From a virus, in the IMG/VR virus record IMGVR_UViG_3300025872_000053, positions 1-64,000 of that record: a stretch of DNA of 64,000 nucleotides. One strand, given 5' to 3'. The position numbers and the translations under genes are program-made. How positions within the stretch are numbered: the first letter of the stretch is position 1; every line of letters starts with the position of its first letter. The notes beneath the pieces were generated by a model. It saw only the letters and a program-made list of their open reading frames with translations. It was not told where the DNA came from and did no database searches. This document shows, one piece after another, positions 25,312-64,000 of the stretch.

Positions 25312-26439
25312 ATGTCTTGTTCAAACTGTTACAACGGATGCACTGAGATTGTCTCAGATAGGTGTGTGAGATATACAGGATTAGATGTACCTGCTCTAGG
25401 TATTCTATCAGGTGATTCTCTATCACTCGTAGAATCTTCTTTAATAGAGTTTCTTACATCCACTTTAAATGGTGTAGGAATCAAACCTATTGTTGATCCT
25501 CTAATCATCTGTAATCTTGTTCAACAATATCTTCCTGATTGTGGTGAGTTTACATTGAATGACTACATTACAGCTCTCATCAAAGCTGCTTGTGATCTGC
25601 AGGTACAAGTTGATTTACTTGCTGCTGACATCACAACATTGAATGCTGATTATGATGTAGACTGTTTAGTAGGTGTTACGCCTTCTTCAGACACACATGC
25701 TGTGTTGCAAGCAGTTATTACAAAGCTTTGTGACATAGATGTAGAACTTGCAGCTCTTGCTTTAGATGTTGATACCAACTATGTAAAGCTTGCAGATCTT
25801 AATACATTAATTGCTGCTTACCTTGCTAGTGTATCTCCTGATGGTACAAAGTATTACACCAAGATGGTTCCTTATACAGTGGTTGAATACTACGGACCTC
25901 TTACAGGAAACTTTGATGTAACAGGTGCAGGACTAGGTGACTGGGAGAAAATCTACCTCTGTAATGGTAACAATGGAACACCTGACAAACGTGGTAGAGC
26001 TGCTGTGGGTGCTATTGTTGGTGTAGGTGGTGGAGCTCTTGATCCAGTAGTGGATCCAGCAACCCCTACAAACCCTAACTATGCTCTCAATGGAACAGCT
26101 GGTGCAAACACTGTGTCTTTGAACACTTCTCAACTTCCTTCACATACACATGGTGTCACTGTAATTGATGCTGGACACACCCACTTTACATTAGCAGATG
26201 CTGTTGATACAACTGGTGTTCTTCCTACAAATACAACAAGTATTGCTAAAGAAAGCTCATTTGGTACATCAGGAGAAGAATATGCAATGCGTTCATCTGC
26301 TTTGAGTGGAGCAAGTTTAGGTTTAACAAGTGCCTCTGGTTCAAATATTAGCGTTTCAATTGCTAACACTGGAAGTGGAAGCCCACATAGCAACATTCAA
26401 CCTGTTCTTGCTTGCTATTATATTATGTACATTCCTTAA
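25312..26439 (+). CDS. tail fiber protein with C-terminal phage tail-collar domain (375 aa)
   Basis: 'GDWEKIYLCNGNNGTPDKRGRAAVG' (LPDLRGR-like) and 'LPSHTHGVTVIDAGHTHF' (LPxHxH) collar-domain signatures; Cys-rich N-terminal anchor domain. Confidence 0.7.
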   Translation: MSCSNCYNGCTEIVSDRCVRYTGLDVPALGILSGDSLSLVESSLIEFLTSTLNGVGIKPIVDPLIICNLVQQYLPDCGEFTLNDYITALIKAACDLQVQVDLLAADITTLNADYDVDCLVGVTPSSDTHAVLQAVITKLCDIDVELAALALDVDTNYVKLADLNTLIAAYLASVSPDGTKYYTKMVPYTVVEYYGPLTGNFDVTGAGLGDWEKIYLCNGNNGTPDKRGRAAVGAIVGVGGGALDPVVDPATPTNPNYALNGTAGANTVSLNTSQLPSHTHGVTVIDAGHTHFTLADAVDTTGVLPTNTTSIAKESSFGTSGEEYAMRSSALSGASLGLTSASGSNISVSIANTGSGSPHSNIQPVLACYYIMYIP

Positions 26440-26457
26440 CAAATAAACTCTAAATAA

Positions 26458-26787
26458 ATGGCTTGTACTCCAGGTTCACCATGTAATCCATTGGTTGTCA
26501 ACACTGTATATCCAAAGAAGTGTAACAACGGATGGTTTGCTGGCTATCCAATATCAACAAATTTAATATGTTATAATGGTCCAAATCTGCCAAATACAGG
26601 TGTCAATACTAATGATAACCTGAATCTGGTTTTAGAAAAGATTGACGCAGAGTTGGATCCAGTAACCTTAGCAGAAACATTATTACAAACAATTGCAACA
26701 AATGTTTCCCTTCTTACAGCTTTCTGTGAGATAGCTAACCTTTGTGCCTCTTACACAACCACAACTACCACCACGGTAGCACCATAA
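26458..26787 (+). CDS. small fiber-anchor-domain protein ending in TTTTTTTVAP (109 aa)
   Basis: N-terminal domain paralogous to N-terminus of gene 61809.. ('TGVNTNDNLNLVLEKIDAELDP' vs 'TGINTNDNLQTALEKIDAKFAD'). Confidence 0.55.
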   Translation: MACTPGSPCNPLVVNTVYPKKCNNGWFAGYPISTNLICYNGPNLPNTGVNTNDNLNLVLEKIDAELDPVTLAETLLQTIATNVSLLTAFCEIANLCASYTTTTTTTVAP

Positions 26788-26797
26788 ATTATCAAAA

Positions 26798-26855
26798 ACC
26801 CTGTTTTGTTGGTTTTACAGGGTATCTCCTGGGGTTTCTACCCTGGGAGTTTTTG
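26798..26855 (+). terminator. tandem hairpins / intrinsic terminator
   Basis: accctgt...acagggt stem (26798..26823) then ctcctgggg-tttcta-ccctgggag (26826..26849) followed by TTTTTgTTT. Confidence 0.6.
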
Positions 26856-26907
26856 TTTAAATTATAACCAATTTGGTTATTACAGATAATCTATTTGGTT
26901 AAATAAA

Positions 26908-26940
26908 TTTGGAGAATTTCAAAAATTGTTCGTACCTTTA
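26908..26940 (+). promoter_or_regulatory. candidate promoter for 26968.. transcription unit
   Basis: TTTG (26908..26911) - 21 nt - TAccTTTa (one mismatch to TAnnTTTG). Confidence 0.3.
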
Positions 26941-26967
26941 CTGTAATTTTAACTAAAATCTAGTCCA

Positions 26968-29419: not shown

Positions 29420-29424
29420 TATAG

Positions 29425-33300: not shown

Positions 33301-35494
33301 TTATTATGGATCAATTAAGAATATATTTGACAACCAATGGGGTCAGATTTATTCTTATGAAACAATTGACACTGGTTGTCAAGTGATATTCAATTCTGTA
33401 ACATCTAGAATCATTACAGCTTTTGGAGGAGATACATTTATTAACAAGTTCTCTTTCAAAACAAAACTTCCATTCTTTATAGATAATAGAGTGGGTGCTC
33501 CTGATGATAGTGATGTGTTCTATGATGAGATAGGTAATGTAGCCTATCCAAAATATTGGCACTCAGCTAGATCAATTCTTTATAACTACACAACAGTCTT
33601 AACTTCACCTGCTGTCACATTAAAAAATATCATATCAATCAAAGCTCACAACTTTGATTGTCCAAATGCTCAGATAGAAGGATCTCCTGGAAGAACTTAT
33701 TATGATGGAAGCTTCTACCTATTTGCTTATGGTATTCCTACATTCTATTGTGAATCAAATGTTAACGTAGATTTACGCCAAGCATTTAATAATAGAGAAG
33801 GTGATTTCTTCCCACACGTGAGTACAGGTATTCCTGATCAGTGGGTACAAGAAAGTAATGTTCCTATTGCGTTTGACAATACGTACTATTATAACCCAAC
33901 ATATTCTAAACAGAATACAGAGAATTCGTTCACACATCTTCCTGTAAACTGGGACAACAACCAATGTTATACAAACTTCCCATTCAGGGCTATCTATTCT
34001 GATAGACAGCAGAGCTTTGTTGATAATGAAGTGAACAACTGGTTGATATACAGACCTATAAGCTTCTTTGATTTCCCACAGAACTATGGAAAGCTTACAA
34101 GCTTAGACGGTATTCAGAATAGAGCAATCCTTGCTAGGTTTGAGAATAAATCATTGTTATACAATACGTTGTTGACAATTGATACAAGCAATCCTCAAGC
34201 AGCTTATGTAGGAAATGACTCACTATTTAGAAGTGCACCTCCAATAGACTTTGCAGAAACAGACTTGGGATATGTAGGAAGTCAGCACAAGATGCTTCTA
34301 AAAATACCACAAGGACAGGTTACTGTAGATGCTAAGAGAGGTCAGGTGTTCTTGATTGCTGGTAATCAAGCTACAGATTTGTCAGGCTTTGGTTCAGGAT
34401 TGAATAGGTTCTTTACAGATCATTTAGCATTTGAAATACTTAGATATTTCCCTAATGTTCCTGTAGACAATCATTTCAATGCTATAGGTTTACATGGTGT
34501 ATACGATAGTAAGTTTGATAGAGTTATTATCACCAAGCTTGATTATATTCCTTTGAGAAATGACATCAAGTATGATGCTACAACTAACGAGTTTTATTTT
34601 GAGACTGAGTATGTAATGCCTAGTGAGACTTTGTATTACAGTGTGGTTCGTACTGTTGTTGATTTGACAGATACTAACTATTTCTGCAACAAGTCTTGGT
34701 CACTATCATTCAACTTCAATACAATGAGTTGGATAAGTTTCCATAGCTATATTCCTAACTTCTACATTGCTGAAAATAACTTCTTCTATTCTGGATTGAA
34801 TGGTAGCTGTGATGTAGAAGCACTTGCTGCTGAGATTGTACCAACAACTACAACAACTACAACACTTGCTCCAACAACAACCACTACAACTACATTACCG
34901 CCTCCTAATTGTGCTCTAGCAGGAACAATAGAATTGTTGAACTGTGAACTAGTTGGTACAGCAGAACGTATCAGTCCTTTGAATTGTGACTTGGCAGGAA
35001 CTGCAGAAGCAATATATCCTACTACTACCACAACAACTACTACAGTGTTAGATTGTGCATTAGGTGGAACAGCTGAGGCTATTGCTCCAGAACCTACAAC
35101 TACCACTACCACTACAACGTTACCTCCTGAGTTTTTCTTTTTAGCATTTACTCCTGAGGGAACTGCTCAAAGATGTTCTGATTTAGGTGAGGGTTGTACA
35201 AGTTGTGGACCTTACTATGGAGCACCTGGTTCTACTTTATCTGAAGGACTTGCTTTGTATCAAGATGAAACATTGACAACTCCTGCAGCAAATGGTTATT
35301 ATAATGACTGCTGTAATTATTGGGTTTGTACTGGAGGCGTGTTTGGTAGTGGAGGAACTTGCGATTGTTATTTTGAAGGAACTGCTGAGAAGATAGAACC
35401 TACAACAACAACCACAACTACAACAGTTCTTGATTGTGATCTGGCTGGTAATGCTGAACAAACTAACCCTCCACCACCTCCTCCTACACCTTAA
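30377..35494 (+). CDS. large tail/host-recognition protein (1705 aa) with C-terminal poly-Thr linker array and Cys-rich terminal module
   Basis: C-terminus: four T7-8 linkers alternating with 'LDC(A/D)L(A/G)G(T/N)AE' peptides, 9-Cys module, ends PPPPPPTP. Confidence 0.55.
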   Translation: MAGEGTTNIIQERTAAQTGLNLDRTVNQIPKGQLTYALNAAVENFDSNSVNYQNEPGNELCLNFPEDYHLIGTHFINEQAKHIFFLTNPSTGDSEIGYMDNNDCVYRKYISGKCLNFNIDYPIHKAVHKITNCTTEIYWTDGLNPRRFLDLNNLPYITSPGLTGCDPIVTPELDCNKLKVQPNFNIPQINITGVNNTGNLVAGTYQFAIQYSDASGDPYTSYYSVTNPTSIGNVDITTPDFNYSVGQAIELAINNLDVTGYFQYFNIAVIKTVNAISSVELVGTYYIDQASRDITYTGQNQTQIRLTLNDVFEKFPYYDIAQDLTSVQDVLVWDNLTSIDRVNYQKIANGITLNWQTYKLPADENYADNANSANLRGYLRDEVYAFEIVFLLGNGKQTDGFHIPGRAKNFNEFSQPDVPNTNPDFVGDGTSAPYWKIYNTASVLGVGAGEPIGNATPYQYGEFAYWESTETYPCNEEVWGDLANQPIRHHKFPDVLVSPIFESGTPTIEYDGTYSGLTIENRSVFPIGVRFDANQIKQLIEFSGLTDEQKSNIVGFKIVRGNRNTNKSVVAKGILRNVGEYEREGNTFYFPNYPYNDLRVDPFLLKENNAYDAVCREYKITVTNVAGTTISYYNCDTNELSTEVVASATTVNLCSTTFPTLSAPSDGTIEATDYGVWRLCSKVAGLFTGNTFEYLPPDQAAPTTAFVPSGITSPFCVVVNSVTKPIFVSGTGRFEITLLQEIKNGVLNCTVSDDNLDAFNNTNSPYRYVFNSPDTSFGSPFLGNVLKLENAIYGRGNAHFVQVSKNANYKLITIEAQEDALASSEEIADTTTPFDVPAMFAAYQSYLTIYINGITRKNYAKSYNSIAEYDYSIAINNDLGVKQRQIDIAQYLIPGVQNVGDNLNINNFNRESSVYIKTIDTRDGNSVSSLPYPDNTPNALIGGTTPVIQDKSRYTLSEIGNCLNPEKEFEISTITYYGSIKNIFDNQWGQIYSYETIDTGCQVIFNSVTSRIITAFGGDTFINKFSFKTKLPFFIDNRVGAPDDSDVFYDEIGNVAYPKYWHSARSILYNYTTVLTSPAVTLKNIISIKAHNFDCPNAQIEGSPGRTYYDGSFYLFAYGIPTFYCESNVNVDLRQAFNNREGDFFPHVSTGIPDQWVQESNVPIAFDNTYYYNPTYSKQNTENSFTHLPVNWDNNQCYTNFPFRAIYSDRQQSFVDNEVNNWLIYRPISFFDFPQNYGKLTSLDGIQNRAILARFENKSLLYNTLLTIDTSNPQAAYVGNDSLFRSAPPIDFAETDLGYVGSQHKMLLKIPQGQVTVDAKRGQVFLIAGNQATDLSGFGSGLNRFFTDHLAFEILRYFPNVPVDNHFNAIGLHGVYDSKFDRVIITKLDYIPLRNDIKYDATTNEFYFETEYVMPSETLYYSVVRTVVDLTDTNYFCNKSWSLSFNFNTMSWISFHSYIPNFYIAENNFFYSGLNGSCDVEALAAEIVPTTTTTTTLAPTTTTTTTLPPPNCALAGTIELLNCELVGTAERISPLNCDLAGTAEAIYPTTTTTTTTVLDCALGGTAEAIAPEPTTTTTTTTLPPEFFFLAFTPEGTAQRCSDLGEGCTSCGPYYGAPGSTLSEGLALYQDETLTTPAANGYYNDCCNYWVCTGGVFGSGGTCDCYFEGTAEKIEPTTTTTTTTVLDCDLAGNAEQTNPPPPPPTP

Positions 35495-35523: not shown

Positions 35524-36027
35524 ATGGCACAAACAGTATTGATAACACTAACAACTGCAGGAGCTGATACAGGACCCTTTGACTTGTATTCAGATGCTGA
35601 TAGTTATGTTACACCATTTGAAAATAATGTACCGAAAGCATCATTAGTTTCAGGATATACATCAACAGTAGTTCCTGATCTTGCTACAATTATTAGAGTG
35701 CAATCTGATGGTACTTGTACTAATTACATTGATCTAACTATTGTTACAACCACTACTACAACCACAACAGCAGCACCTGTTTATGCATTCTCAGGATCTG
35801 GATATAGCAATGTAGATGAAAATGCTGCTTGTTCTGATGCAATCTTGAATAACAGAACACTAACTTCTGACTGTGCAGTGATTGCTCCAGGTTGTGTAAT
35901 ATTTACAAATCCTTTGGGAACTAATCCGCTTCTTGGTAACTCCTATGTATTGATAGGTGGTGCAGGAAACTTTGATTTAGATCCTCTAACTGGTGTTGTA
36001 TTAGGTGCTTCAGCAATTCAATGTTAA
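35524..36027 (+). CDS. small virion protein with internal T8 linker (167 aa)
   Basis: N-terminus paralogous to next gene (MAQTVLITLTTAG.. vs MAKTIVIRLTKSG..); 'TTTTTTTTAAP'. Confidence 0.5.
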   Translation: MAQTVLITLTTAGADTGPFDLYSDADSYVTPFENNVPKASLVSGYTSTVVPDLATIIRVQSDGTCTNYIDLTIVTTTTTTTTAAPVYAFSGSGYSNVDENAACSDAILNNRTLTSDCAVIAPGCVIFTNPLGTNPLLGNSYVLIGGAGNFDLDPLTGVVLGASAIQC

Positions 36028-36033
36028 TAATAA

Positions 36034-47900: not shown

Positions 47901-50900
47901 ATTGAAGCTGAGCAGGCAGAACTTGAAAAGTCTTCTGGTTCTATAGGAACAGACACTCTTGATAACGATATTAAGAAGATTGTTATTGAGGATCCTAAGA
48001 AGGATGCTAATATATTATATACATCTGATACAGGAGCATCTGAAGATTGGGAAGCAGGTAATCTTAAGGCTTATTCTATTAGGAGAATTGAGTTTCTTAA
48101 TAACGTGAAACTTATGTCTAATAGAGGAAGACTTAAAGTAATTCTTGTCACTCCTAAACAAAAGATTCCTGGATTGGAGAATCTTCCAAGTCTTGCATTT
48201 GAAGGACTAGGTGTTACAGAAGATCAATTTAGTGATCCAACTGTAGGACTAGTTGCTGCAATATATGTAGAACAAGATGGTAATGATTACTATTATGTGA
48301 ATGTTGCTGGTAGAAGACTTGCAAAGGTTGGAGAACCAGTAGATATTGAGTCTATTGTATTTGGTACAATGCCTACAGCATCTCTTACATGGAGCAATGG
48401 AAAGCCTAGATATAGGTCTAGTCAAAAGACTGAAGCTGAGGAAATGTCTAAGAGATGGCAGGCTAAAAGAGATGAGTTGTTCAATGCTCCTGAAGGAACA
48501 TTCCAAGCTTACTCTTTTTCTGTAAGCAAAGGTATTCCTGAGGTGAATGATTACTATGATGTAAATGCTGTAGGAGACAATCTTATTCCTGAGAATATGA
48601 TTCCTACACAGGAAGGACTTATTCAAATATCAACTACAGGGTTTGTTGCTCATCAGGGTGAGAACGTATCTATCCCTGCAGGTAGACCAGCTCTTCAGTT
48701 TGGTGAAACTTTAATGTTCCTTAATAACAGGAAATTTACAAAGCAAGAGGCTGAAACAATATTTGAATTATTGAATCGCATCTCTAATGAGATAAAGGAT
48801 CAGTCTGATGCTAATGAGAAGATAAAGATTAACAAGAAGATTGCAAGATTTCTTCAGAACGTCTTATACTGGAGAAAGTCTCCTTCTACCAAAGGTAATC
48901 AACTGTACATTGATACAGACGGAATGAACTTGTTCTTTGGTGGTAAAGCTTATGACTTAACAAACCTTGAAGCTAGCAGAGATGAATTGATTGCTCAGAT
49001 TCAAGAGATGTATAATAATGTGAACAACGAAACTTTAAAAGCATTTGGAGAACCGTTCACAGAATACTATATGAAAGATGGTAAGGTTGTTACAAATGAA
49101 TGGACAAACTACCAAACATATCTTCTTTCATCATCTTTCCCTGATGGTTCAGCTAGATCTGAAAAACAAATTCCTCTTTCTACAGCTGTAGCTAAACCTA
49201 CAGAAGCTGTTCCATACAACTTCAAACAGAAGTATGCAATCCTCCAAGGATTAGATCTTCCTGTTGTATCTGTTAAGAAGGAAGAAGTTAAACCTACAGA
49301 ACCTACTCCTGGAGCTCCTAGTGCTGTAAAGGTTGGTGACTATGTGTTAGATGGTCAAACAAAGAATACATATCAATTAACTGCTGGTCCTGTTGAGTTT
49401 ACAGCAGATATTGATGCAGATGATAATATATCAGTTAGTGTTGAATCTAATGATGTAGTTAGAAATGTTGCTTCTAACAAAGAAACTATGGCTACCATCA
49501 TTGAATCTCTCAAAAAACAAGAAAGGTTTGATGCTGCTAAAGATGAAGAGCAACTTGCTCTTGATTTTATTGCATTAAGAATCACAGCAGATTTAAAGAA
49601 ACAGAAGTCTGAACAAGCTCCTACAACAGCAGCTGTATTACAGCCAGATGTTTCTCCTCTTGCACAAGCACAAGGAACAGCTAGAACAGAGCCTGTTGTT
49701 ACAGCAACTCCTGTTTCTGATATAGAAGCTAAGAAAGCTGACATAGAAAAGAGAAGACAAGAAGAATTAAAAAGTGTCGAACCATATAAAGCAGTATTTG
49801 ATGCTGTTAAAAAAGCAAATGTAGACACAGATAGTGTAGAGTCTTTAAACAAAATAAAACAAGATGCTATTGATTTAAAGATAATTGATGCATCAGCAGG
49901 TAATAGTTTTGTAAGAAGCAATGGTTCTAAATTTACATCTGAAGAGAATGTTTTTGTAATTGAACCAACTAATAAAATCAATGCTAAGTATGACGCAGAG
50001 TTAGCTGCTTTAGAAGAAAAACCTGCTGCACCTAAGAACTTTGGTGGAACCAAACCTCCTGCAAATAGTGAATATAGAAGAGTGGGTACTTTAGGAATAG
50101 ATAGAATCAGTGATGCAGAGATTGAGTTGTTTAAGATATGGGCTGCTGATAAAGTTCCTGGTATTCCTTATGAGGTGATGGAGAGCATTCTTACAACACA
50201 CGATGGTGAGAAAGCATGGGGTGCATTTGAAAATGGTGTTGCTAAGTTTTACAAGTCTGCAGCTAGAGGTACAGAATACCACGAGATATTTGAGGGTATA
50301 TGGAAAGGATTCCTTTCTCCAGAAGAAAGACAAGCTATTCTAGATGAGTTTAAATCTAAGAAGGGTGAGTTCAAAGATAGGCAGTCTGGTAAGATGATTG
50401 CATATGTAGATGCTACAGATCAGCAAGCTAAAGAAAGAATTGCTGATGACTTTGCAGATTTTAAAGTGGGTAAGCTCCCAGCTCGCTCCTTAGGAGAAAG
50501 AATAGTTAAGTTCTTCAGAAGCATTATTGAATTTGTAAAGCAGTTTGTAAACAAACCTTCTAGAAAGGAAGAATTGTTCAAAGCTATTGATACAGGTAGA
50601 TTTAAAGAAAGCGTTCTTCCAGAAAGTGTAAAGAATGACTTTTCTGAATACAGAGCTGTAGAAGGATTGAATGAAAAACAAACCAGAGAGTTTGTTGAGG
50701 ACATCACTGCTAGAGCTTTCCAAATTATATTCAGAACTAATACATCATTGTTCTCCCCAGAGAAACTTACAGCTCCTCAGATATTTGATGACATAAAAGC
50801 TCAATATGAAGAAGAGGGTAAGTTAGAGATTCTTGGAGAGAAAGCATGGAGTGAACTTGTTGGAAAGACAAAAGACTTCTTGCGTACGTTCAAGATTGAG

Positions 50901-53900
50901 TTTGATGACAATGCTCAAGTGAACATTAATGACGAGAATTATAACAACCGTCTATATGCTCCAGAGGCATTCTCTGTAGATTTCAAGAAACAATCTCCTT
51001 ATCCAGTGAAGCTTTTGTTGGGAACACTAACAGAAGCAGTTGCTACAAACCAAGAGAATTCTAATGGCTTGGAACTTCCAAAGCTAAAGAACTCAAGTAT
51101 AATAGGATTGAAGCTATTGAACTTTAGCAGAGCGTTTGTAACTGTACTTGATAAACTTTCTAACACAACAAAGGTTGGAAAGATGATTGATAAGCTAGTT
51201 GACCTAGCTAAATACGACAGTAACTATGTACGTTTGTTCACTCGTCTGAAGGGAACATTGAAAGATAATGAAGGTAATGCAATAATTGATTTCTCTAAGT
51301 TTGAACCTCAAGATTGGAGATTGTTCATTAACTTCTATCAAACTTTCACCAAACAGAAACCAGAAGCTTTGATTCAGTATTTGGATGGAGGAGAAGTGTA
51401 TACAGCTCCTGCTAATTTATTCACTGTAATTAAGCAAACTCAAAAGGGTTGGACAGAGAACATGAAGGCTCTTTCAAAAGATCCTAGTTCTTTAATCACT
51501 TACAATAGTACAGATAAGGTTTATAAAGTTAAAGATCTTAAGGATGTTCCTGTAACATCTCCTCAAGAGATGGTTGAGTTTTTGTCAAGAATAGGTATTG
51601 ATTTTCCAATTGATGTGTTCTTGAAGCTAAGAGAAAAGCAGCAGAAAGAATTTATTACAGCTGTAGGCTCACTTCATACATATCTTCAGAAGGTAGATGA
51701 GGTGATGAGTGTGAAAGGAGAAACTTTAAATGTAGGTGGTCAGTTAGTTAAACTTGCAGAACTATATGTAAGAGTGACCAATCCTTCTCATGAAAACACT
51801 TATAGAAACGTAGAGGACAAACAAACAAATGCATTTGCTGACAGTAATGCTCCATCTGTATTTGAAAGTGAGTTCAATGATGCTAATACATTAGATGAAC
51901 TTCTTGAAGCTAGACCAGAACTTAAAGATGTATTCTCTAAGAACAGCGTGGTTCTTAAGAAGGGAGGATTATTCTTTGATAAAAACGGAAAGAGAATAAA
52001 GTCAGTTAAGGTTAAATACATCCAGGGTGTAAGAGATAATGATAACAAAAAAGGAACTTCTACAGACAGACTTGGTTTAAACACCAGATCTATGTTGGAA
52101 ATTAACCAAAACCTTAATGGTGATTACTATGTTCTTATTCCTGCAGATAGCTCTACAGAGTGGATGATGAACTTGGGTAATGTTGTATCATTTGAAGATA
52201 TTGAATCTGGTGATGCATGGCCTACAATCTACAGCATATTCAGAGGTTATCTAGAAGATGAGATTGCTTTAGCAAAAGCTGATAGAAGACAACTTAATAA
52301 TGTTGGTAGCAGAGCACAAGAGCTTAGGTTCTTTAAAGATATTCTTCCTATAGGTATTCTTGGCAGAATCAATGATATGATTTTGAACAATGAGTCTAAT
52401 GAAAATATCAATACATACATTGATGAAAACATTTCTGAAATCAATGAGTCTGTTAAGAATCTGATTTCTGAACAAGCAAACGAAGTTAATCTCAATCCTT
52501 CTCAGCTAGACAGCAACTTCTTAAAGAAAGAGAAGTTAGGTAAAGATCTTTCTCCAAAGGAACTTGAGAGCGTTAAAAACTTCTTGGCTGTAAACTATAT
52601 CATAAACAACATAGAATACCACAAGGTATTGTTTGGTGATCCTTATCAGTTTGAATTAAAGAACGGTAAGCTTGATGAAACTAAACGTATCAAGTCTTTC
52701 CTTTCTCCAAGAAGATTAACTGTAGATTTCCCAGAGCTTAACTCTGCATTGAATGTAGATTATAACAAAGCAGGAAACATTGCTCTTGATCCTGAGGAAC
52801 TAGGATATCACATGTTCAAACCATTTACTAATACAGTTACTCTTAGTGATGTGAAGGTAGTTGGTAGTTTGGCTAACCTTAATCCTGCGTATGCTAAAAC
52901 TAATGAAGCAGATGCTGCTTCTTGGATTGCAGATAATACATACAGAGAGGTTAAGATTAAGAATGGTCAGTGGACTGATGAAGCAGAAGCTTGGCATCAG
53001 CATGAAATGGCTTACACTAGACTTAAGCTTCATGAGAAAGGATTGTATCAATATAAGAACAATCGTCTTAGAGAGCAAGATGCTATTGAAGCTGCTAAAC
53101 CAAGTCCTAAATATGTAACAGAGGTTCTTAAACCTATTGTATCTGGAAACAAATTTAACAAGACAAACTTTGATCTTGTACTAGATAAGTTCTCTCAGAT
53201 GCCTTTATATTATAGCATGGTTGAAGGAACTAACCTTGAGGCTCTTTACATGAAAATGTTTAAAGAGAAGATTGGTTATGTTATTATGGAAAGTGGTAGA
53301 AAGGTTGGTAAAGAAGGAACATATAAGTTGTACAATAATGATGGTACACTTAATCAAAAACCTTTCAACAATCTTGTTCAAGTTCCATGGAAAGCTTATG
53401 GTATACAAGTGGAGAATGCTTTTGAAGGAGCTAAGTCTCAGACTAGAGGTTCTCAGCTTATGAAGATTGCAACACTAGATTTGTTTGATAATGGTAAAGC
53501 TAGTCCAGAAGCAAAAGAACAATACAACAGACACAAGAAAATACAAGATGCTCTTCATAGAAATGGATACATTGAGCTATTGAAGAAGCTTGGGATCAAA
53601 GATCTTGGTGATAGTTATGAGCTTGTTGACAAAGCAAGTGTTTCACAACTTCTTGAGCGTGAGATGCTTAGAAGAGAATTGTCTGACAATGCTAAAGATA
53701 CAGTGAGACTTGATGATAAAGGACAGTTTAGAATTCCTTTTGAAGCATCTAATGCTTATGTACAAATAAGAAACATTCTATTCTCTTTGGTAGACAAGTC
53801 TCTTGTTTCTCCAAAGATGAATGGTAGCTCTCACGTACAGGTTCCTGCTACAGGATGGGAAAGTTCTGCAGAAGGAAGATCTCTTGCTATAAAGAGAGAT

Positions 53901-56852
53901 GATAAGTGGGTTAAGATTAGTAGAGGTGAGTTTGAAAAGCTTTCTGATGAAGAGAAATCAAAGGTGGCTCTTACAGACACATCATTGAAGTTCTATACAA
54001 AGGATGCTCCTTATTCTGAGATTCTTCTTCCACATTGGTTCAAAGAGAAGTTTGCTAATTCTAGATTCTCTACAGACGAGCAGCTTTTGGACTATCTCAA
54101 TAAACCAGAGAATCAATCTATCCTTAGAGGTATTGGTTTCCGTATTCCTACACAGGCTCTTAGTTCTGTAGAAGTATTCAAGGTGAAAGGTTTCCTTCCA
54201 CAATCTATGGGAGCTACAGTGGTTGTTCCTTCTGAAATTACTACCAAGGCAGGATCTGACTTTGATATAGATAAATTGAATATGTATTTAAAGAATACAT
54301 ATGTAACTAAATCAGGTGATATCAAGCAAGTTCCATTCTTTGGAATTGGTGAAGAGGGAATGAATAAAGCAAAAGAGTTTATCAAAGCTCAAGACTTGAC
54401 TGGTGATAACGGTCAAAGAACTGAAGAGGCTCTTGAGGATGATATCAATACACTAGCAGAGAGACTATACAAACAATCTCTTGAGAACGAATACTATGAA
54501 TCTTTGGAAGCTATTATTACACTTCCTGAGAACTTTGAAAGACTTATCACTCCTGTAAGTGATGGTGGTTTGAAGAAGATTGCTGACAAGCTTGATGATC
54601 TTAGAAATGAAAAAGAAGAGAACATCAAGAATAAACTTATCAGTAGAAAGTTCATGGATTCAGTGAGACATGCTTTTGTTACTGGTAAGAAGTGGGTAGG
54701 TATTGCTGCTGTAAATATTACAGGTCAATCTCTTACACAGAAATCAGAAGTGTATATTGATCCTACAAAGTTTGCAGCTGCAGGTGGAAAAGATATGTTC
54801 TTCTTAGGAGATGGTAAAGTTGCTCTTCCTCATAACACTGTAAAGATAAACGGTGAGGAAAGAATATCTATCTCTGGTGTATATGATTATACAGGTAAGA
54901 AACTTATCTCTGATGGTCTATCTGGATATGCTACATCTTTTGTGGACGTTGCTAAAGATCCATACATACTTAAGGTTATTCAAAGTGATCTTGCTGTAGG
55001 TACATTTATGTTCTTACAAAGGATTGGAGTTCCTATTGAGACAGCAGCAATGTTCATGAATCAGCCTATCATCTCTGAGTATTTAAAGATGCTTGATGAT
55101 AGAGGAACTAAAAATTTATTTACAAAAGGTGCTATATTAGATATACAAGATAGGTTTGTAACAACAGGACGTGGTATCGAATTTGCAGAAATAAGTTTAG
55201 GTACATTAGAAGATAATATTAGTGAATACTATTCTGGAAAAGAACTTAGTCCAGCAAAGAATGCAGAACAACATAAGATATTCTTTGAGTTCTTGAAGTA
55301 TGCTAAGATGGCTGAGTTTAGCTTCAAGCTTACACAGGCATCTAACTATGACACTACTAAGTTTAAGAGTGGTGATACATTATTCAAGAAACAAACAAGA
55401 ACTGATGTTGCTAGAGAGGTGAATATATTCTCTTCTGTAGATAAGATTCTTGACAACAACTTTATTGGTGAACAAGCTAATCTTTTAGACAAAGCTGCTG
55501 AATCACTTGGTGAGATTCTTAAGCTTGACAAAGATCAGTTTACAATCATAACTAACTCAGTGTTAAAGAGTTATGCTGAGAACGAATACCTATCTGCTGA
55601 TAAGTATGAAAAGATAGCAAACAAACTCAAAGCGTCATTCCTTGATTACATTATTCAAATCAAGAGCGGAATCAACACTGAGATTAAAGATCTATTGGTA
55701 GAAAAAGGAACTTCTGTAGCAGACAAACTTGCTCTTGCTAAGAAGAATCATCCTGAGGTTACTATTCTGAAGGATCTTCAGATAGAAGGTTCTGATAGAG
55801 TGGATGGTGCAAAGAGTATTAAGCTTGCTGCAAACATTAAAGAAGCTTATGACGAGAACTACTATACAGGATTAATGAGAGAGATGAGAGATAATCCTGC
55901 CACTAGAGATTTGTATTATGATATTGTGGTGTTGGCAATGTTGCAAGGAACATACCAGTCTGCCATCTCTATAAAGAACATTATTCCTATTGAAGACTTC
56001 AGTGAGAACATTGCTCCTATCATATCAACCTTGATAGCAGACACAGATGTACAAGCTTTCTCTGAAGGATGGTTCCAAAGAAACAACTGGAAGGATAATG
56101 ATGTATGGAAGACTGTTAGTCCTAGATTCTTTCCTGCAGGAGAAGATGCTCCTATAGGAGAAGATCAGTATGGTAACGATATATATCAGTATGTTTCCAC
56201 TGCATACTTCCCTAATATTACAGAAGGACTTGGAATTAAATCTGTTGATAGAAAGATTCTTGCACTAAGTGATGCATTTAATTCTTTTGATATAAATGCT
56301 GACTTTGTTCTTGTTCCTAGAGTGATTGATCAGAACGGTGAGCAAATTGATATGAAGACAGGACAAACAATCACACCATCAATGTTTGCTCAAAGAAAAG
56401 CAAAAGGTGATCTTTCTCTGAAAGAAGTGTATGGATATAAAAAGGTTAAGTTTAAAAATGGTCAACCATTAACTTATACAGAAATGTATAAGGGTGAGCC
56501 TATAACAAAATATGTGTATAAGCTCATCAACTTATATGGTGATGGAGCTCTTGCTTCTGAATACTATCTAGACTTCCAACCATCTGTTCTTGATAATGGT
56601 ACAGTGAAGATAGCTAATGAGATTCCTGATGCAGACATTCTTAATTACTTTGCTCCAAAACAAGCTGCTGAGGAATTAGCTGTTGCAAACCTTGACGCTT
56701 TAGAAGAGTTTAGTGATGAAAGAAAACAAGAAATTATAACTAACTTTGCTGCAAAACATAAGATGACAGAGGAGCAAGCTAAGGAATATATCAACCAAGC
56801 TCTTCAGAAGGATAAAGAAAACACAATAGCTAAACTTAAAGAATGTTATTAA
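44943..56852 (+). CDS. giant protein (3969 aa) with multisubunit-RNAP beta-prime-like catalytic segment; candidate virion RNA polymerase
   Basis: aa ~3066-3117 'FRIPTQALSSVEVFKVKGFLPQSMGATVVVPSEITTKAGSDFDIDKLNMYL' vs RPB1/beta-prime 'NRQPSLHKMS...YNADFDGDEMNMHVP' (R.P(S/T)...DFDxDx(M/L)NM(H/Y)); DFDID at nt 54258..54272; N-terminal P-loop-like 'GNPSSGKTG'; Gly/Ala-rich hydrophobic segment near N-term. Confidence 0.55.
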   Translation: MAIFDNELIDNVSNRTPESPKQLLPSPTVRDVDVSLGGFEVYGNPSSGKTGLSIDQLSEFSGVRTNQSSFSSPVQMVPRSELLANQRYSNYQRGVDLENVYGLSQSWYDQLGNGIIKMGGLGVGTFLQSFATIPNTMAAVKNGKLSDLSGGTDGYEAAIDNWTKNLEDIFPNYYTREEQKHPYLAMLPFAPGSANFWGDKVIKNLGFTAGAIGGAVAQDAAIGLVTEGVGAVPLISAQLGKAALFLNKIFTGTNNVEKALDIAKASGVAADTILDVKKLGDIAAYTKVADGFRYGMALYGSARTEAAIEARDSYRTVREDLLKQYKIENAGVDPTGEDAEQIEDYATSAMNTRFGINMALLTASNAIQFGNLFKSFTSANKAVSGQLTRELEDIGKIGLKEGSKDVFEAKVATGLKDRIWESVRPKMANILVEGVYEEGGQYAAEKGVYDYYTRKYKNLSNPKNKENWDTVNETISSTLTGLKNQFGTSEGLENMMVGAISALITGGIMGRVDAAKGQGKEARLQSSVNLLNQYGLTGILSNQYDNTLSSAAIAKEMDEAAKTGDIFKYKNLKNDMFFNFVQSRIPSGMHDVTIEQLRMLKDLDKTEFEKSFGMDFNSSNKSTVNEYVDSLINEANQIKKISDSIDFTFKNPFKKIDNPTTEEQAGETMNFMLFNQWKTELTYLAAKVPHVNNRLSSVQESVSNLAPAVTNDLLAQLTNKELLKDLSASYEERANQLNKTITDFTSPQDRKSIKDQVKALRTASERINLGLKDGVDNKLFDYLLNFELNNQDPKADRQVGPEKSVDLFNYGHDINRLNALKDRVVDLYDNLTSEEGFNKFMEQGEELRSGAVPEEETKEEVVEVKEGPKFTNKAGVKETFEEGREYEIPVSKKARVRKVGADRFKVTLPDGTATFYPTREEAVAAAAEVNEEFGNLQKVKVLGINDDGTVKVEDINGDIYNLDPSKFDGYEKIMSAQEKLMKDKSDIEAEQAELEKSSGSIGTDTLDNDIKKIVIEDPKKDANILYTSDTGASEDWEAGNLKAYSIRRIEFLNNVKLMSNRGRLKVILVTPKQKIPGLENLPSLAFEGLGVTEDQFSDPTVGLVAAIYVEQDGNDYYYVNVAGRRLAKVGEPVDIESIVFGTMPTASLTWSNGKPRYRSSQKTEAEEMSKRWQAKRDELFNAPEGTFQAYSFSVSKGIPEVNDYYDVNAVGDNLIPENMIPTQEGLIQISTTGFVAHQGENVSIPAGRPALQFGETLMFLNNRKFTKQEAETIFELLNRISNEIKDQSDANEKIKINKKIARFLQNVLYWRKSPSTKGNQLYIDTDGMNLFFGGKAYDLTNLEASRDELIAQIQEMYNNVNNETLKAFGEPFTEYYMKDGKVVTNEWTNYQTYLLSSSFPDGSARSEKQIPLSTAVAKPTEAVPYNFKQKYAILQGLDLPVVSVKKEEVKPTEPTPGAPSAVKVGDYVLDGQTKNTYQLTAGPVEFTADIDADDNISVSVESNDVVRNVASNKETMATIIESLKKQERFDAAKDEEQLALDFIALRITADLKKQKSEQAPTTAAVLQPDVSPLAQAQGTARTEPVVTATPVSDIEAKKADIEKRRQEELKSVEPYKAVFDAVKKANVDTDSVESLNKIKQDAIDLKIIDASAGNSFVRSNGSKFTSEENVFVIEPTNKINAKYDAELAALEEKPAAPKNFGGTKPPANSEYRRVGTLGIDRISDAEIELFKIWAADKVPGIPYEVMESILTTHDGEKAWGAFENGVAKFYKSAARGTEYHEIFEGIWKGFLSPEERQAILDEFKSKKGEFKDRQSGKMIAYVDATDQQAKERIADDFADFKVGKLPARSLGERIVKFFRSIIEFVKQFVNKPSRKEELFKAIDTGRFKESVLPESVKNDFSEYRAVEGLNEKQTREFVEDITARAFQIIFRTNTSLFSPEKLTAPQIFDDIKAQYEEEGKLEILGEKAWSELVGKTKDFLRTFKIEFDDNAQVNINDENYNNRLYAPEAFSVDFKKQSPYPVKLLLGTLTEAVATNQENSNGLELPKLKNSSIIGLKLLNFSRAFVTVLDKLSNTTKVGKMIDKLVDLAKYDSNYVRLFTRLKGTLKDNEGNAIIDFSKFEPQDWRLFINFYQTFTKQKPEALIQYLDGGEVYTAPANLFTVIKQTQKGWTENMKALSKDPSSLITYNSTDKVYKVKDLKDVPVTSPQEMVEFLSRIGIDFPIDVFLKLREKQQKEFITAVGSLHTYLQKVDEVMSVKGETLNVGGQLVKLAELYVRVTNPSHENTYRNVEDKQTNAFADSNAPSVFESEFNDANTLDELLEARPELKDVFSKNSVVLKKGGLFFDKNGKRIKSVKVKYIQGVRDNDNKKGTSTDRLGLNTRSMLEINQNLNGDYYVLIPADSSTEWMMNLGNVVSFEDIESGDAWPTIYSIFRGYLEDEIALAKADRRQLNNVGSRAQELRFFKDILPIGILGRINDMILNNESNENINTYIDENISEINESVKNLISEQANEVNLNPSQLDSNFLKKEKLGKDLSPKELESVKNFLAVNYIINNIEYHKVLFGDPYQFELKNGKLDETKRIKSFLSPRRLTVDFPELNSALNVDYNKAGNIALDPEELGYHMFKPFTNTVTLSDVKVVGSLANLNPAYAKTNEADAASWIADNTYREVKIKNGQWTDEAEAWHQHEMAYTRLKLHEKGLYQYKNNRLREQDAIEAAKPSPKYVTEVLKPIVSGNKFNKTNFDLVLDKFSQMPLYYSMVEGTNLEALYMKMFKEKIGYVIMESGRKVGKEGTYKLYNNDGTLNQKPFNNLVQVPWKAYGIQVENAFEGAKSQTRGSQLMKIATLDLFDNGKASPEAKEQYNRHKKIQDALHRNGYIELLKKLGIKDLGDSYELVDKASVSQLLEREMLRRELSDNAKDTVRLDDKGQFRIPFEASNAYVQIRNILFSLVDKSLVSPKMNGSSHVQVPATGWESSAEGRSLAIKRDDKWVKISRGEFEKLSDEEKSKVALTDTSLKFYTKDAPYSEILLPHWFKEKFANSRFSTDEQLLDYLNKPENQSILRGIGFRIPTQALSSVEVFKVKGFLPQSMGATVVVPSEITTKAGSDFDIDKLNMYLKNTYVTKSGDIKQVPFFGIGEEGMNKAKEFIKAQDLTGDNGQRTEEALEDDINTLAERLYKQSLENEYYESLEAIITLPENFERLITPVSDGGLKKIADKLDDLRNEKEENIKNKLISRKFMDSVRHAFVTGKKWVGIAAVNITGQSLTQKSEVYIDPTKFAAAGGKDMFFLGDGKVALPHNTVKINGEERISISGVYDYTGKKLISDGLSGYATSFVDVAKDPYILKVIQSDLAVGTFMFLQRIGVPIETAAMFMNQPIISEYLKMLDDRGTKNLFTKGAILDIQDRFVTTGRGIEFAEISLGTLEDNISEYYSGKELSPAKNAEQHKIFFEFLKYAKMAEFSFKLTQASNYDTTKFKSGDTLFKKQTRTDVAREVNIFSSVDKILDNNFIGEQANLLDKAAESLGEILKLDKDQFTIITNSVLKSYAENEYLSADKYEKIANKLKASFLDYIIQIKSGINTEIKDLLVEKGTSVADKLALAKKNHPEVTILKDLQIEGSDRVDGAKSIKLAANIKEAYDENYYTGLMREMRDNPATRDLYYDIVVLAMLQGTYQSAISIKNIIPIEDFSENIAPIISTLIADTDVQAFSEGWFQRNNWKDNDVWKTVSPRFFPAGEDAPIGEDQYGNDIYQYVSTAYFPNITEGLGIKSVDRKILALSDAFNSFDINADFVLVPRVIDQNGEQIDMKTGQTITPSMFAQRKAKGDLSLKEVYGYKKVKFKNGQPLTYTEMYKGEPITKYVYKLINLYGDGALASEYYLDFQPSVLDNGTVKIANEIPDADILNYFAPKQAAEELAVANLDALEEFSDERKQEIITNFAAKHKMTEEQAKEYINQALQKDKENTIAKLKECY

Positions 56853-56853
56853 C

Positions 56854-61500: not shown

Positions 61501-61582
61501 AAGGGACATTGTATAGCTATATTATGTCTAAAACTTTCTTCTAAGTCATTGAAAATCATTTAAAACAATTAACTTTGTAACT

Positions 61583-61798
61583 ATGCGTATTGCTACAATT
61601 TGCCCAACGTGTGCCACACACATTAACTCTGTGTGTGTGATTTATGATGGTGAGTATCTTGCTAATTTAGATGTAGCTCCAGGAGATACCCTTGAGGATA
61701 TCCTTCTGAAGATTAACAATAGTTGTGCTTGCACTACTACTACAACTACTAGCACTAGTACTTCAACCACCACTACAACTACTACTATAGCACCATAA
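61583..61798 (+). CDS. small fiber-anchor-domain protein ending TTTTTTTIAP (71 aa)
   Basis: CxxC N-terminus + 'PGDTLEDILLKINN' like other anchor-domain paralogs; poly-Thr + IAP C-terminus. Confidence 0.5.
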   Translation: MRIATICPTCATHINSVCVIYDGEYLANLDVAPGDTLEDILLKINNSCACTTTTTTSTSTSTTTTTTTIAP

Positions 61799-61808
61799 CT
61801 TAATATAC

Positions 61809-64000
61809 ATGAACGTTACTTGTGGAGCCACCCCCTGTCCAGTTATACTGAATAGCACCTGCGTATTTTACGAAGGTGCTAATCTCATTTATACAGGCAT
61901 CAATACTAATGATAATCTTCAAACTGCTCTAGAAAAGATAGATGCTAAGTTTGCAGATGCATCAATAGGATACGTGTTTCAAAACGGTATTATTCAAACA
62001 GCACCTGGTCAACCTGTAAAGTTGGGAGGTTCTTTGAATCAAAACACCGTAATTAACAGTGCTGGTTATACATTTGAACTTACAGGTACTATTGAATCAT
62101 CTGCATTCATTACCTCTGGAGGAACATCAAGCCAGTTTGTTAAGGGAGATGGTTCTTTAGATTCTACATCCTATCAGCCTGCTGGTAACTATATCACTGG
62201 TCTCACTGGTGATGGTACAGCATCTGGTCCAGGTAACGTTCCTTTTACATTAGCTACAGTTAACTCAAACCCAGGCACTTATGGATCATCTACATTGATT
62301 CCTGTAGTGACTGTGAATGGTAAGGGATTGGTAACTAATATTACCACCACAGCTGTAAATATTCCTTCTGGCTCAATCATTTTACAAGGAGATGTAACAG
62401 GTGTTGGAACCACAGGTGTTCCTCTTACAACTACACTTGCTACAGTGAATGCCAATGTGTATGGTACAGACACTCCTCTTAAATTTGCTGTAAATGGTAA
62501 GGGATTAGTTACATCAGCTTCTCCTCTCACTGCTTTAGATATAATAGGCATTCTTGGTTATACACCAGTTCCTGATAGTAGAACTATCACGATCAATGGT
62601 GTAACCTATGATTTGTCAGCTAATAGAACTTGGTCTGTAGGAACAGTCACAAGTGTAGATCTTCAAATGCCTTCAGCATTTGCTGTATCTGGTAATCCAA
62701 TCACCTCATCTGGAACTTTAGTAGTAACTGGTACAGGTACTATAAATCAATATGTTAGAGGTGATGGTTCATTAGGAAACTTCCCATCAGGTATTGGTTC
62801 TTCAGGTACCTCAGGTGCTGGAGGTACATCTGGTACTTCTGGTCAAGGTGGTACATCTGGTACTAGCGGTGCAACAGGTGTGTCTGGTACAAGTGGTACT
62901 TCAGGTGGCACAGGTAGTAGTGGTACTTCTGGTATAGGAGGTTCCTCTGGTACAAGTGGACAAGCTGGGTCATCAGGTACATCAGGTGTTTCTGGTGGTT
63001 CTGGTAGCTCAGGATCTTCTGGATCCTCTGGAATAAGCGGAACTTCTGGAACAAGTGGTGGCACAGGAACCAGTGGAACATCTGGTAACAATGGCTCTTC
63101 TGGTACTTCTGGAGGAACAGGAACTAGTGGTACCTCAGGTGACTCTGGTACATCAGGCTTATCTGGTACTAGCGGAACATCAGGTGGAACTGGTACATCA
63201 GGTACAAGCGGAGGTACAGGAACCTCAGGTACTAGTGGAGCTACTGGCTCTAGTGGTACATCAGGTAATAGTGGAACTTCTGGAGACTCTGGTACAAGTG
63301 GAAGTTCTGGTGTATCTGGAACTAGCGGTGATAGTGGGTCTAGTGGTACATCTGGTGCAACAGGTTCTTCTGGAACAAGTGGTATTTCTGGTACTAGTGG
63401 CACGTCTGGTGCTGTTGGTAGCAGTGGTACATCTGGTGAAAGTGGAACTAGTGGTAACAGTGGGACAAGTGGCACAAGTGGTATAAATGGAACTTCTGGT
63501 AATAACGGCACTAGTGGTACTAGTGGAGGTACAGGTACAAGTGGTACTTCTGGAGACAGTGGTTCATCAGGTGTGAATGGAACTAGTGGTACGTCAGGAG
63601 ATAGTGGTAGCTCTGGCACCAGTGGGTCTTCTGGACTTTCTGGTACTAGTGGTCAATCCTCTACAAGCGGTACAAGTGGAAACAGTGGTTCTTCTGGCAC
63701 TTCTGGTTTGTCAGGTAGTTCTGGAACAGCAGGTGAATCTGGTACAAGTGGTAATAATGGCTCCTCTGGAAACAGTGGTACGTCAGGTACAAGTGGTTTG
63801 AATGGTGATGATGGTACATCTGGTACCAGTGGTATTAGTGGTACATCAGGTACCAATGGACAAAATGGTACAAGCGGTACATCTGGCTTGTCAGGTACAA
63901 GTGGAAATAACGGTAGCTCTGGTTCTTCTGGAAACAGTGGAACAAGTGGCACCTCAGGTATAAATGGTGATGATGGAACTTCAGGAACTTCTGGCGTTAG
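61809..64000 (+). CDS. tail fiber with phage-tail-fibre repeats and long Pro-free collagen-like (Gly-X-Y) domain; 3' partial (runs off window), absent from ORF track
   Basis: Open frame from ATG 61809 to window end; N-term anchor domain; two 'T(L)ATVN..GTY....VTVNGKGLVT' repeats (lambda Stf-type 'AGTYTKVTVNAKGLVT'); from ~62791 continuous GTS-GTS-GxG triplets. Confidence 0.7.
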   Translation, partial: MNVTCGATPCPVILNSTCVFYEGANLIYTGINTNDNLQTALEKIDAKFADASIGYVFQNGIIQTAPGQPVKLGGSLNQNTVINSAGYTFELTGTIESSAFITSGGTSSQFVKGDGSLDSTSYQPAGNYITGLTGDGTASGPGNVPFTLATVNSNPGTYGSSTLIPVVTVNGKGLVTNITTTAVNIPSGSIILQGDVTGVGTTGVPLTTTLATVNANVYGTDTPLKFAVNGKGLVTSASPLTALDIIGILGYTPVPDSRTITINGVTYDLSANRTWSVGTVTSVDLQMPSAFAVSGNPITSSGTLVVTGTGTINQYVRGDGSLGNFPSGIGSSGTSGAGGTSGTSGQGGTSGTSGATGVSGTSGTSGGTGSSGTSGIGGSSGTSGQAGSSGTSGVSGGSGSSGSSGSSGISGTSGTSGGTGTSGTSGNNGSSGTSGGTGTSGTSGDSGTSGLSGTSGTSGGTGTSGTSGGTGTSGTSGATGSSGTSGNSGTSGDSGTSGSSGVSGTSGDSGSSGTSGATGSSGTSGISGTSGTSGAVGSSGTSGESGTSGNSGTSGTSGINGTSGNNGTSGTSGGTGTSGTSGDSGSSGVNGTSGTSGDSGSSGTSGSSGLSGTSGQSSTSGTSGNSGSSGTSGLSGSSGTAGESGTSGNNGSSGNSGTSGTSGLNGDDGTSGTSGISGTSGTNGQNGTSGTSGLSGTSGNNGSSGSSGNSGTSGTSGINGDDGTSGTSGV
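62791..64000 (+). repeat. nucleotide-level triplet/nonamer repeat encoding (Gly-Thr-Ser)n collagen-like tract
   Basis: ggtacWtcWggt-type units repeated for >1.2 kb; every third residue Gly. Confidence 0.8.

Follow-up and report, generated by a model that had tools for sequence, protein, structure and literature searches.

A cysteine-containing N-terminal domain shared by fibre proteins and anchor-only proteins of an environmental crassvirus-like phage

Four genes of the window

We examined positions 1 to 64,000 of the IMG/VR virus record IMGVR_UViG_3300025872_000053 (the window, 64,000 nucleotides in all), in which four genes encode proteins that begin with a common cysteine-containing domain of about 50 residues, here called the anchor, and continue into different distal parts. 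An earlier reading made from the letters of the window (the sequence-only reading) had proposed such a family over the span 25312-62000. Members are found at both ends of that span, where they form two small clusters, but the genes between them are mostly unrelated. All four genes, and the other features described below unless stated otherwise, lie on the + strand.

Gene A (25312-26439, 375 aa) is an open reading frame (ORF) that matches the hidden Markov model (HMM) of the domain at E=1e-20, and it is the most divergent of the four members. Its anchor occupies residues 1-50 (25312-25461; cross-validated HMM E-values of 5e-3 to 7e-5) and is followed by a helical, Cys-containing stalk and by a C-terminal fibre-tip domain at residues 213-374 (25948-26433), which carries SHTHG/GHTHF motifs and is matched by PHROG tail-fibre/tail families at 1.6e-15 and 3e-16. 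The tail-collar label previously given to this part is weak, with Pfam Gp10_C matching at E=0.024 (16 bits, below the cutoff of 27) and PF07484 not reported. Orthologues of gene A in two contigs orthologous to the window (L053 and L054) have 371-373 aa. A suspected repeat of the loop-helix half of the anchor inside gene A was ruled out by shuffling (z of -0.7 to 2.9).

Gene B (26458-26787, 109 aa) is recognized as a member by shuffle test and HMM. Its anchor (residues 1-68, 26458-26661) is interrupted by a Cys-containing insert of about 20 aa (KKCNNGWFAGYP), and a helical segment of about 30 aa with two Cys (FCEIANLC) leads to the C-terminal TTTTTTTVAP (26755-26784), so that the earlier description of this protein as bearing only poly-Thr is incomplete. 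A strong terminator-like hairpin with a T-run (26826-26849; 10-bp stem, 6 GC pairs) lies directly 3' of the gene. In the second cluster, gene C (61583-61798, 71 aa), likewise placed in the family by shuffle test and HMM, consists of an anchor at residues 1-47 (61583-61723), the motif SCAC and a Thr/Ser tract ending in IAP (61733-61795). Gene D (61809-64000) encodes a giant fibre of at least 730 aa that is open at the window end. Its anchor (residues 1-50, 61809-61958) is followed by a fibre-repeat region to residue 327 and then, from about residue 328 (about position 62790) to the window end, by a collagen-like (G-x-y)n tract. Pfam Collagen (PF01391) matches this protein in 6 stretches at E=3.8e-47, and PHROG tail-fibre families also match, in agreement with the distal parts that had been described for it. 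Two antisense ORFs of 258 and 99 aa (62843-63952, minus strand), rich in Pro, Val and Leu, are repeat artefacts opposite the collagen-like (GTS)n tract and not genes.

Homology of the N-terminal domain

Pairwise local alignments of the four N-termini, each judged against 2,000 shuffles per pair, gave z-scores of 14.9 for genes B and D, 9.5 for C and D, 5.4 for A and D, 4.6 for A and B, and 3.7 both for A and C and for B and C. Database homologues were sorted into subtypes A (25312-like), B (26458-like), C (61583-like) and D (61809-like) and, as a non-circular check, one HMM per subtype that included no window sequence was run against all 356 window ORFs of at least 35 aa. Every subtype HMM puts precisely genes A-D in the top four places among the 356, clear of noise; the D-type HMM, for example, returns gene B at 7e-12, gene C at 1e-8 and gene A at 5e-3. 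The common N-terminal domain proposed for the four genes is thus confirmed, with z-scores of 3.7-14.9 and the top four ranks for every subtype model.

The conserved core, as seen in 202 distinct members, comprises one Cys that floats between positions 3 and 7, C10 (100%), C18, (V/I)19, Y21 (100%), G23 (100%), L26, G30, D35 (98%), L37, L41, K43 and I/L44. Several details of the motif set first described for the family have to be revised in consequence. The element (V/I)xYxG is kept family-wide, but L.KI(D/N) is missing from gene A, and the CxxC start is present in genes A and C but replaced by Cx5C in gene B and by Cx4C in gene D, so that it is not a family trait. A zinc finger or ribbon (CxxC...CxxC), as the CxxC start had implied, can be set aside since only three Cys are conserved, the first of them floats over positions 3-7, CxxC occurs in two of the four genes, and no zinc-finger Pfam match is found on the anchors. 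The three conserved Cys could form disulfides to Cys-rich hub proteins, could contribute to a trimeric metal site, in which case metal may be bound by a trimer of anchors, or could be purely structural.

Anchors of different subtypes are 22-43% identical and those of one subtype about 65-90%, and a mixed-subtype alignment contains no conserved stretch of 7-10 columns. As judged from these comparisons, subtypes A-D are held as distinct orthogroups over large distances. Because they stay separate in this way, the subtypes do not appear to be freely interchangeable, and their separate maintenance suggests that they have non-identical docking niches.

Family size and modularity

No Pfam, PHROG or NCBIfam match was obtained over the anchor, the Pfam result applying to Phage_T7_tail, Head_binding and any other family, and a search of PDB sequences with the anchor profile yielded noise only. 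An exhaustive HMM search of 1.84 billion cluster representatives (clusters at 50% identity) recovered 1,595 proteins at E<=1e-3, of which 394 reach E<=1e-10, and the sequence family is apparently both undescribed and very large. A word-indexed protein search gave only proteins of at most 126 aa, which is an artefact of that search and not a trait of the family, and is corrected by the exhaustive one: the members listed from the HMM search range from 60 to 2,057 aa, with the match almost always at residues 1-50, and domain-bearing proteins overall span 60 to more than 3,000 aa.

Three observations show that the domain is a conserved N-terminal unit joined to variable partners. First, the match begins at residue 1 in 203 of the 215 sequences examined. 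Second, when the 109 members of at least 300 aa are compared, their first 55 residues fall into one BLAST cluster of 105 sequences, whereas the last 150 residues of the same proteins give 46 clusters. Few of the distal parts bear Pfam names; the 67 scanned include four with Collagen, two with BppL_N and one with the Peptidase_S74 chaperone. Third, residues 1-76 of gene D, used as a query against IMG/VR, gave 47 loci, on contigs mostly of 50-118 kb, in which similarity covers all 76 residues (17 loci), reaches residue 64 (3 loci) or ends at residues 45-57 (27 loci). Because similarity stops at residues 45-57 in 27 of the 47 loci, the boundary of exchange is taken to be the end of the domain. 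When these IMG/VR loci were scanned in six frames with the HMM, each showed one to three adjacent domain-bearing genes, and D-type fibres ranged from 174 to 3,499 aa. Orthologues of gene D in the 47 loci have 479-3,499 aa.

These results strongly support the proposal, already made in the sequence-only reading, of a virion docking domain with interchangeable distal modules, and we consider it very likely that the module is a virion-attachment domain whose distal parts can be exchanged. Keeping the N-terminal anchor while swapping the distal modules is a textbook principle among phages.

The anchor-only proteins

Genes B and C, hereafter the stubs, encode little more than an anchor and a Thr-rich tail. 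Proteins of 103-112 aa occupy the slot of gene B in about 18 database clusters, and the same slot holds a 682-aa fibre in L054 and a 212-aa protein in L053. The L053 protein is built, in order, from the anchor, a helical segment, TTTTTSTSTTTTTTTATP and an 85-aa distal domain, and gene B of the window stops exactly after the Thr tract that corresponds to the one in this protein. Because the L053 protein continues past the tract where gene B stops, we read poly-Thr as a linker and the stubs as anchor plus linker.

C-type anchors carry the motif MR[IT]A.ICPTC... and occur as stubs of 59-106 aa, in which the anchor is followed by a Thr/Ser tract ending in IAP, AAP, VAP or LPL, while in other phages the same type of anchor bears distal parts of 131, about 217, and 542-622 aa. 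Compared across genomes in this way, the stubs look like the shortest occupants of a slot that is filled by full fibres in other phages. The ratio of nonsynonymous to synonymous substitution rates (dN/dS) over the C-type anchor is 0.06-0.24 in pairwise comparisons among five loci, with dS at or near saturation. Moreover, dozens of divergent genomes contain stub forms, whose reading frames are intact and whose ends are kept as T(n)-[VIA]AP. A third type of stub, of 60-61 aa, has a D-type anchor that passes directly into a coiled coil of three heptads (…LQKLNDTIQELNARIIALEST); it lies between the C-type stub and the giant fibre in other relatives, L001 (10001-10186) and also in L002, L003 and L007 (9661-9972), and is absent from the window. 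Given the conserved orthogroups, the low dN/dS of the C-type anchor and the terminator after gene B, the stubs are, as far as sequence can tell, genes that are maintained and look expressed, rather than debris.

Many virion proteins share a tract of 7-8 Thr that leads into [VILA][AP][PL] (26755-26784, 61733-61795, 24190-24270, 34844-35430 and 35746-35780). Such a tract forms the very C-terminus of both stubs, of the product of 23116-24273, of a 216-aa C-type fibre in L030 and of a 124-aa protein in L001, and it serves as an internal linker five times in the C-terminal part of a 1,705-aa protein at the muzzle position and once in the product of 35524-36027. The length of the tract varies widely among orthologues, as the 59-106 aa of the stubs illustrate. 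No glycosyltransferase was found among ten further window ORFs scanned, which are a subset of the window ORFs.

Neighbourhood of the probable hub gene

Gene order in the window runs 23116, 24359, 24924, 25036, genes A and B, 26968 and a ring homologue at 28218, and can be compared with that of phicrAss001, in which the auxiliary capsid gene gp36 is followed by tail hub protein A (THA), tail hub protein B (THB) and then the ring gene gp40. Cryo-electron microscopy of phicrAss001 shows residues 1-26 of the tail fibre gp22 docked in each of 12 hubs, every hub being made of two THA (gp38) and one THB (gp39), and both hubs and rings are stabilised by disulfides (PMC10172136).

The gene at 24359-24922 (187 aa) encodes a probable THA homologue. 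Its AlphaFold model (predicted local distance difference test score, pLDDT, of 81.5) combines a β-sandwich with a three-helix bundle in a THA-like fold, and its C-terminus is Cys-rich (CNCYGNNY). The protein has 1,573 homologues, and the best 120 of the 1,573 are at least 72% identical. Searches of PDB sequences by phmmer with the products of 24359, 25036 and 23116 gave noise only, and tblastn of the capsid-region protein 23116 gave no match.

Two small ORFs follow. The first (24924-25067) encodes a micro-protein of 47 aa with six Cys (CxxC...CGC...CxxC) that is conserved, and is a called gene, in L053; by its position it is a possible hub accessory. Its CxxC start had suggested a relationship to the anchors, which is contradicted by a shuffle z of about 0 and an HMM E-value of 8.6. 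The second (25036-25302, 88 aa), also conserved in L053, has four Cys and stands at the position of THB; no similarity to crAss001 gp39 or to the small ORFs of Leptolyngbya phage Lbo-JY46 was found by which it could be assigned as THB. The two ORFs overlap by 32 nucleotides in different frames. The products of 24924 and 25036, the C-terminus of 24359 and the anchor Cys together make up a Cys-rich cluster at the hub position.

The association of the 24359 gene with anchor genes is also seen in Lbo-JY46 (L004, PP438436), in which a homologue of 24359 (XAI97411, E=2e-13) is followed by small ORFs and then by three consecutive anchor genes (1461-6388). Their products have 156 aa (a weak match, E about 1e-3), 669 aa (annotated as a tail fibre) and 814 aa, with the anchors at residues about 22-72, after extra Cys-rich residues. 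A search of the literature on Lbo-JY46 and for descriptions of freshwater crass-like fibres returned nothing relevant. Because this adjacency is kept in two distant lineages, because the 24359 model has a THA-like fold and because crassviruses provide a precedent, the tail-hub collar is the most likely socket for the anchor.

In phage crAssE-Sib (L055, OR575929), two small ORFs (17777-18831) lie downstream of a reverse transcriptase and a tail fibre targeted by a diversity-generating retroelement. They were rejected as family members, since their motif C...C(I/F)YxG is marginal and their E-values of 0.03 and 0.3 are not significant. The same phage has a weak homologue of 24359 (25% identity, 6e-4).

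Virus and gene context

The + strand of the window is a long virion operon. PHROG matches identify the terminase (13097), the portal (15133, also by tblastn) and the major head protein (19660). The protein at the auxiliary-capsid position (23116-24273) is placed by its location, and the ring homologue (28218) matches phrog_9863, a family also matched by the crAss001 ring protein gp40. Farther along are ORF 29425, in the downstream part of the operon, and the 1,705-aa protein that starts at 30377 and is assigned to the muzzle position by its location. Downstream giant ORFs of the operon have 1,787, 860, 3,969 and 1,548 aa; judged by position, they are probably crassvirus cargo or virion-RNA-polymerase proteins. 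The 3,969-aa ORF lies at 44943-56852 and is flanked by those of 1,787, 860 and 1,548 aa, its neighbours having no PHROG match.

The portal is closest to that of Lbo-JY46 (tblastn, 30% identity, 2e-77), and many crAss-like phages also match. Syntenic genes on the orthologous contigs L053 and L054 have precomputed Pfam matches to Crass_capsid, CrAss_Ring_1, CrAss_Ring_2 and crAss_MUZ, and the virion genes are of the Crassvirales type, with a P22-like portal, a Crass-type capsid, paralogous ring proteins, a muzzle and giant, probable cargo/RNA-polymerase-like proteins. On the strength of the portal similarity, the operon genes and these Crass-type Pfam matches, we assign the window to an uncultured environmental crassvirus-like podophage. 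A DNA-level search gave no nucleotide match for either fibre-gene cluster in GenBank phages.

Contigs L056 and L057 (JBBAJX010000014 and JBBAJS010000010; 59 kb and 112 kb) of metagenome-assembled genomes (MAGs) of Sediminibacterium sp. encode D-type fibres with 66-72% identity over 76 aa. These contigs are probably co-binned phage genomes, and they give a weak hint of Sediminibacterium (Bacteroidota, freshwater) as a possible host.

Two other genes of the operon deserve mention. An SPFH/Band-7 gene (17718-18248; Pfam 4e-24), unusual in a virion module, directly follows the portal gene and is kept in relatives. The 416-aa protein of 26968-28218 matches the PHROG 'DNA repair exonuclease' family phrog_704 at 2e-47 and has no Pfam match; it sits between the fibres and the ring proteins in the tail module, a position kept in L053 and L054.

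Docking model and alternatives

We propose that the anchor is a plug made of a Cys-containing loop region (the floating Cys, C10, C18, the (V/I)xYxG turn and the G30...D35 loop) and an amphipathic helix, L37-x3-L-x-K-I. The loop part would insert into a tail-hub collar formed by the 24359 product and its small Cys-rich partners, mirroring the insertion of gp22 residues 1-26 into the THA2-THB hub of phicrAss001, and the helix would begin a three-chain stalk that is carried on as a coiled coil, collagen-like triplets or a beta-fibre. Parts beyond about residue 50 would be swapped by recombination at the domain boundary, so that each phage could have, at one locus, 1-3 or more fibres that differ in their receptor-binding ends, and subtypes A-D would occupy non-identical docking niches. 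The stubs, as anchor plus flexible Thr-rich linker with no receptor-binding end, would act as blanks, spacers or short Thr-rich whiskers at docking sites. Collagen-like G-x-y repeats begin 5-10 residues past the anchor helix in several members (e.g. P0053, P0055 and P0071), and a heptad coiled coil follows the helix in the 60-61-aa stubs (P0019 and P0006). Because such segments start only a few residues after the helix, three anchors are expected to come together, and the stubs too may be trimeric. Taken as a whole, the statement that the anchor is the plug domain of trimeric fibres with exchangeable outer ends, that the tail hub is its socket and that the stubs are functional minimal members seems to us reasonably probable.

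A number of observations count against this proposal. The placement of the anchor in the virion is argued from comparison and analogy, and the anchor has no sequence similarity to the N-termini of phicrAss001 gp22, gp21 or gp29; the domain HMM also finds no match at E<=1 in the structural region of crAss001 (L052). Because homology to these three N-termini is lacking, we say that the module works like the phicrAss001 anchors and not that it is a member of their family. A Foldseek search with the 24359 model returned FN3-like domains only and did not find THA, and 25036 is possibly THB, an assignment made purely on position. The AlphaFold2 model of the isolated domain, of moderate confidence (pLDDT 67), shows residues 37-50 as a confident helix and the N-terminal third as poorly ordered. 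Such disorder would be compatible with folding on a partner, although the model is uninformative about the fold, and Foldseek gave no match at E<1 for this moderate-confidence model. In addition, about 35 kb separate genes C and D from the hub gene, a set of only twelve hubs seems too small to serve at least four kinds of fibre unless virions are mosaic, fibres are branched or sockets are subtype-specific, and the stubs are close in size to the phicrAss001 head fibres of 97 and 122 aa.

As to what the stubs might do, they may be adaptors or competitors, as the sequence-only reading suggested. They could form a 'blank fibre' system in which anchor-only proteins compete with full fibres for a fixed number of hub sockets, or fill non-equivalent sockets specified by subtype, and thereby govern both the valency and the mix of receptor-binding fibres that a virion displays, their Thr tails serving as sites of phage-directed O-glycosylation or as a weak-adhesion brush around the particle. 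We offer this blank-fibre system as a tentative idea that is unlikely to hold.

Some or all of the paralogues, and above all the 71- and 109-aa stubs, might instead be head fibres whose anchors sit in hexon-centre pockets, with the Thr tails decorating the head. In phicrAss001 the head fibre gp21 (97 aa) is held by residues 1-38 in pockets of planar hexons and gp29 (122 aa) by residues 1-58 in those of winged hexons; most crassviruses have no homologues of either, and uncharacterised proteins may act analogously (PMC10172136). Beyond the similar sizes, genes A and B directly follow the capsid and auxiliary-capsid genes, and the protein at the auxiliary-capsid position, 23116, likewise ends in a Thr tract. 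The same domain, however, also heads giant collagen-like fibres and proteins with tail-fibre, BppL_N and S74-chaperone parts, its adjacency to the THA-like gene is kept in two distant lineages, and a single type of anchor is unlikely to suit both hexon pockets and tail hubs. For these reasons we think a head location improbable.

Branched receptor-binding complexes are familiar from phages G7C, CBA120 and phiK64-1, and one paralogue might dock on the virion while the others attach, through the shared domain, to it or to each other. Such branching would also resemble the 'additional tail fibre proteins' on phicrAss001 gp22, would accommodate several anchor genes per genome in a crassvirus plan that has only 12 hubs, and would fit with subtypes that stay distinct orthogroups. 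Every paralogue has the same module at the same N-terminal position, however, whereas in the branched systems known the primary fibre bears a separate acceptor domain, of which there is no sign here; moreover, the fibres were found to contain no internal copies of the domain, and secondary HMM matches are insignificant. Fibre-on-fibre attachment is therefore a reading to which we give little credence.

It is less plausible still that the domain is an N-terminal nucleus of trimerisation or folding, perhaps a metal- or disulfide-clamped knot that registers three chains, with attachment located elsewhere. Each chain does contribute three conserved Cys, and collagen-like or coiled-coil segments begin immediately after the domain, but conserved stubs would then have no other means of attachment, phage fibres usually register from the C-terminus or via chaperones (one member has an S74 chaperone), the residue-1 position is typical of particle-binding domains, and the zinc-finger match is absent and the CxxC spacing not conserved. 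Finally, the suggestion that the stubs are decaying remnants of module shuffling without a function of their own, which could appeal to the longer fibres that fill the same slots in relatives and to the L053 homologue (anchor, poly-Thr, distal domain) that makes the window version look like a deletion after the linker, is extremely improbable, given that the stubs belong to conserved orthogroups under purifying selection (dN/dS of 0.06-0.24 at saturated dS), that dozens of divergent genomes have them with intact frames and T(n)-[VIA]AP ends, and that a third type of stub (60-61 aa, ending in a coiled coil) exists independently.

Significance

Environmental crAss-like phages, which include those of freshwater and marine Bacteroidota and at least one cyanophage, are abundant but structurally uncharted, and their fibre genes are mostly unannotated. 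The anchor provides a simple handle for annotation, in that ORFs with this domain at their start can be taken as candidates for virion fibres or receptor-binding proteins. The boundary of the domain, moreover, shows the point at which host-range modules are swapped, a help in annotation, in inferring host range and in engineering chimeric fibres. The link to a THA-like neighbour would extend the tail-hub architecture of φcrAss001 to very distant relatives, and conserved anchor-only proteins raise the testable question of how fibre stoichiometry is set. As cultured Lbo-JY46 carries the domain, an experimentally tractable member of the family is at hand.

Comparison with known systems

In SP6/K1-5/K1E-like phages, a small adaptor that resembles only the N-terminal part of T7 gp17 carries the tailspikes. 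Like that adaptor, the stubs are short proteins roughly equivalent to a fibre anchor alone and are encoded beside full-length fibres. Unlike it, they end in a Thr-rich low-complexity tail and not in a docking platform, there is no sign of proteins attached to them, and the neighbouring fibres have anchors of their own.

The N-terminus of T7 gp17 and the head-binding domain of the P22, Sf6 and HK620 tailspikes are conserved particle-binding regions joined to swapped distal receptor-binding modules. The family described here shares with them a recombination boundary right after the conserved anchor and highly diverse C-terminal parts, but it is an unrelated sequence family and places several paralogous anchors within one genome.

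Parallels are also found in phicrAss001. The stubs are small, as are gp21 and gp29, and would also have an N-terminal anchor (38-58 residues in gp21 and gp29) with a short projecting remainder; the distal parts of gp21 and gp29, however, are folded domains and not poly-Thr, and there is no sequence similarity. With respect to the tail fibre gp22, the module described here has roughly double the length, contains conserved Cys and occurs in at least four paralogues that include anchor-only proteins, and yet, as in gp22, the anchor stands at the extreme N-terminus with collagen-like or coiled-coil segments directly after it.

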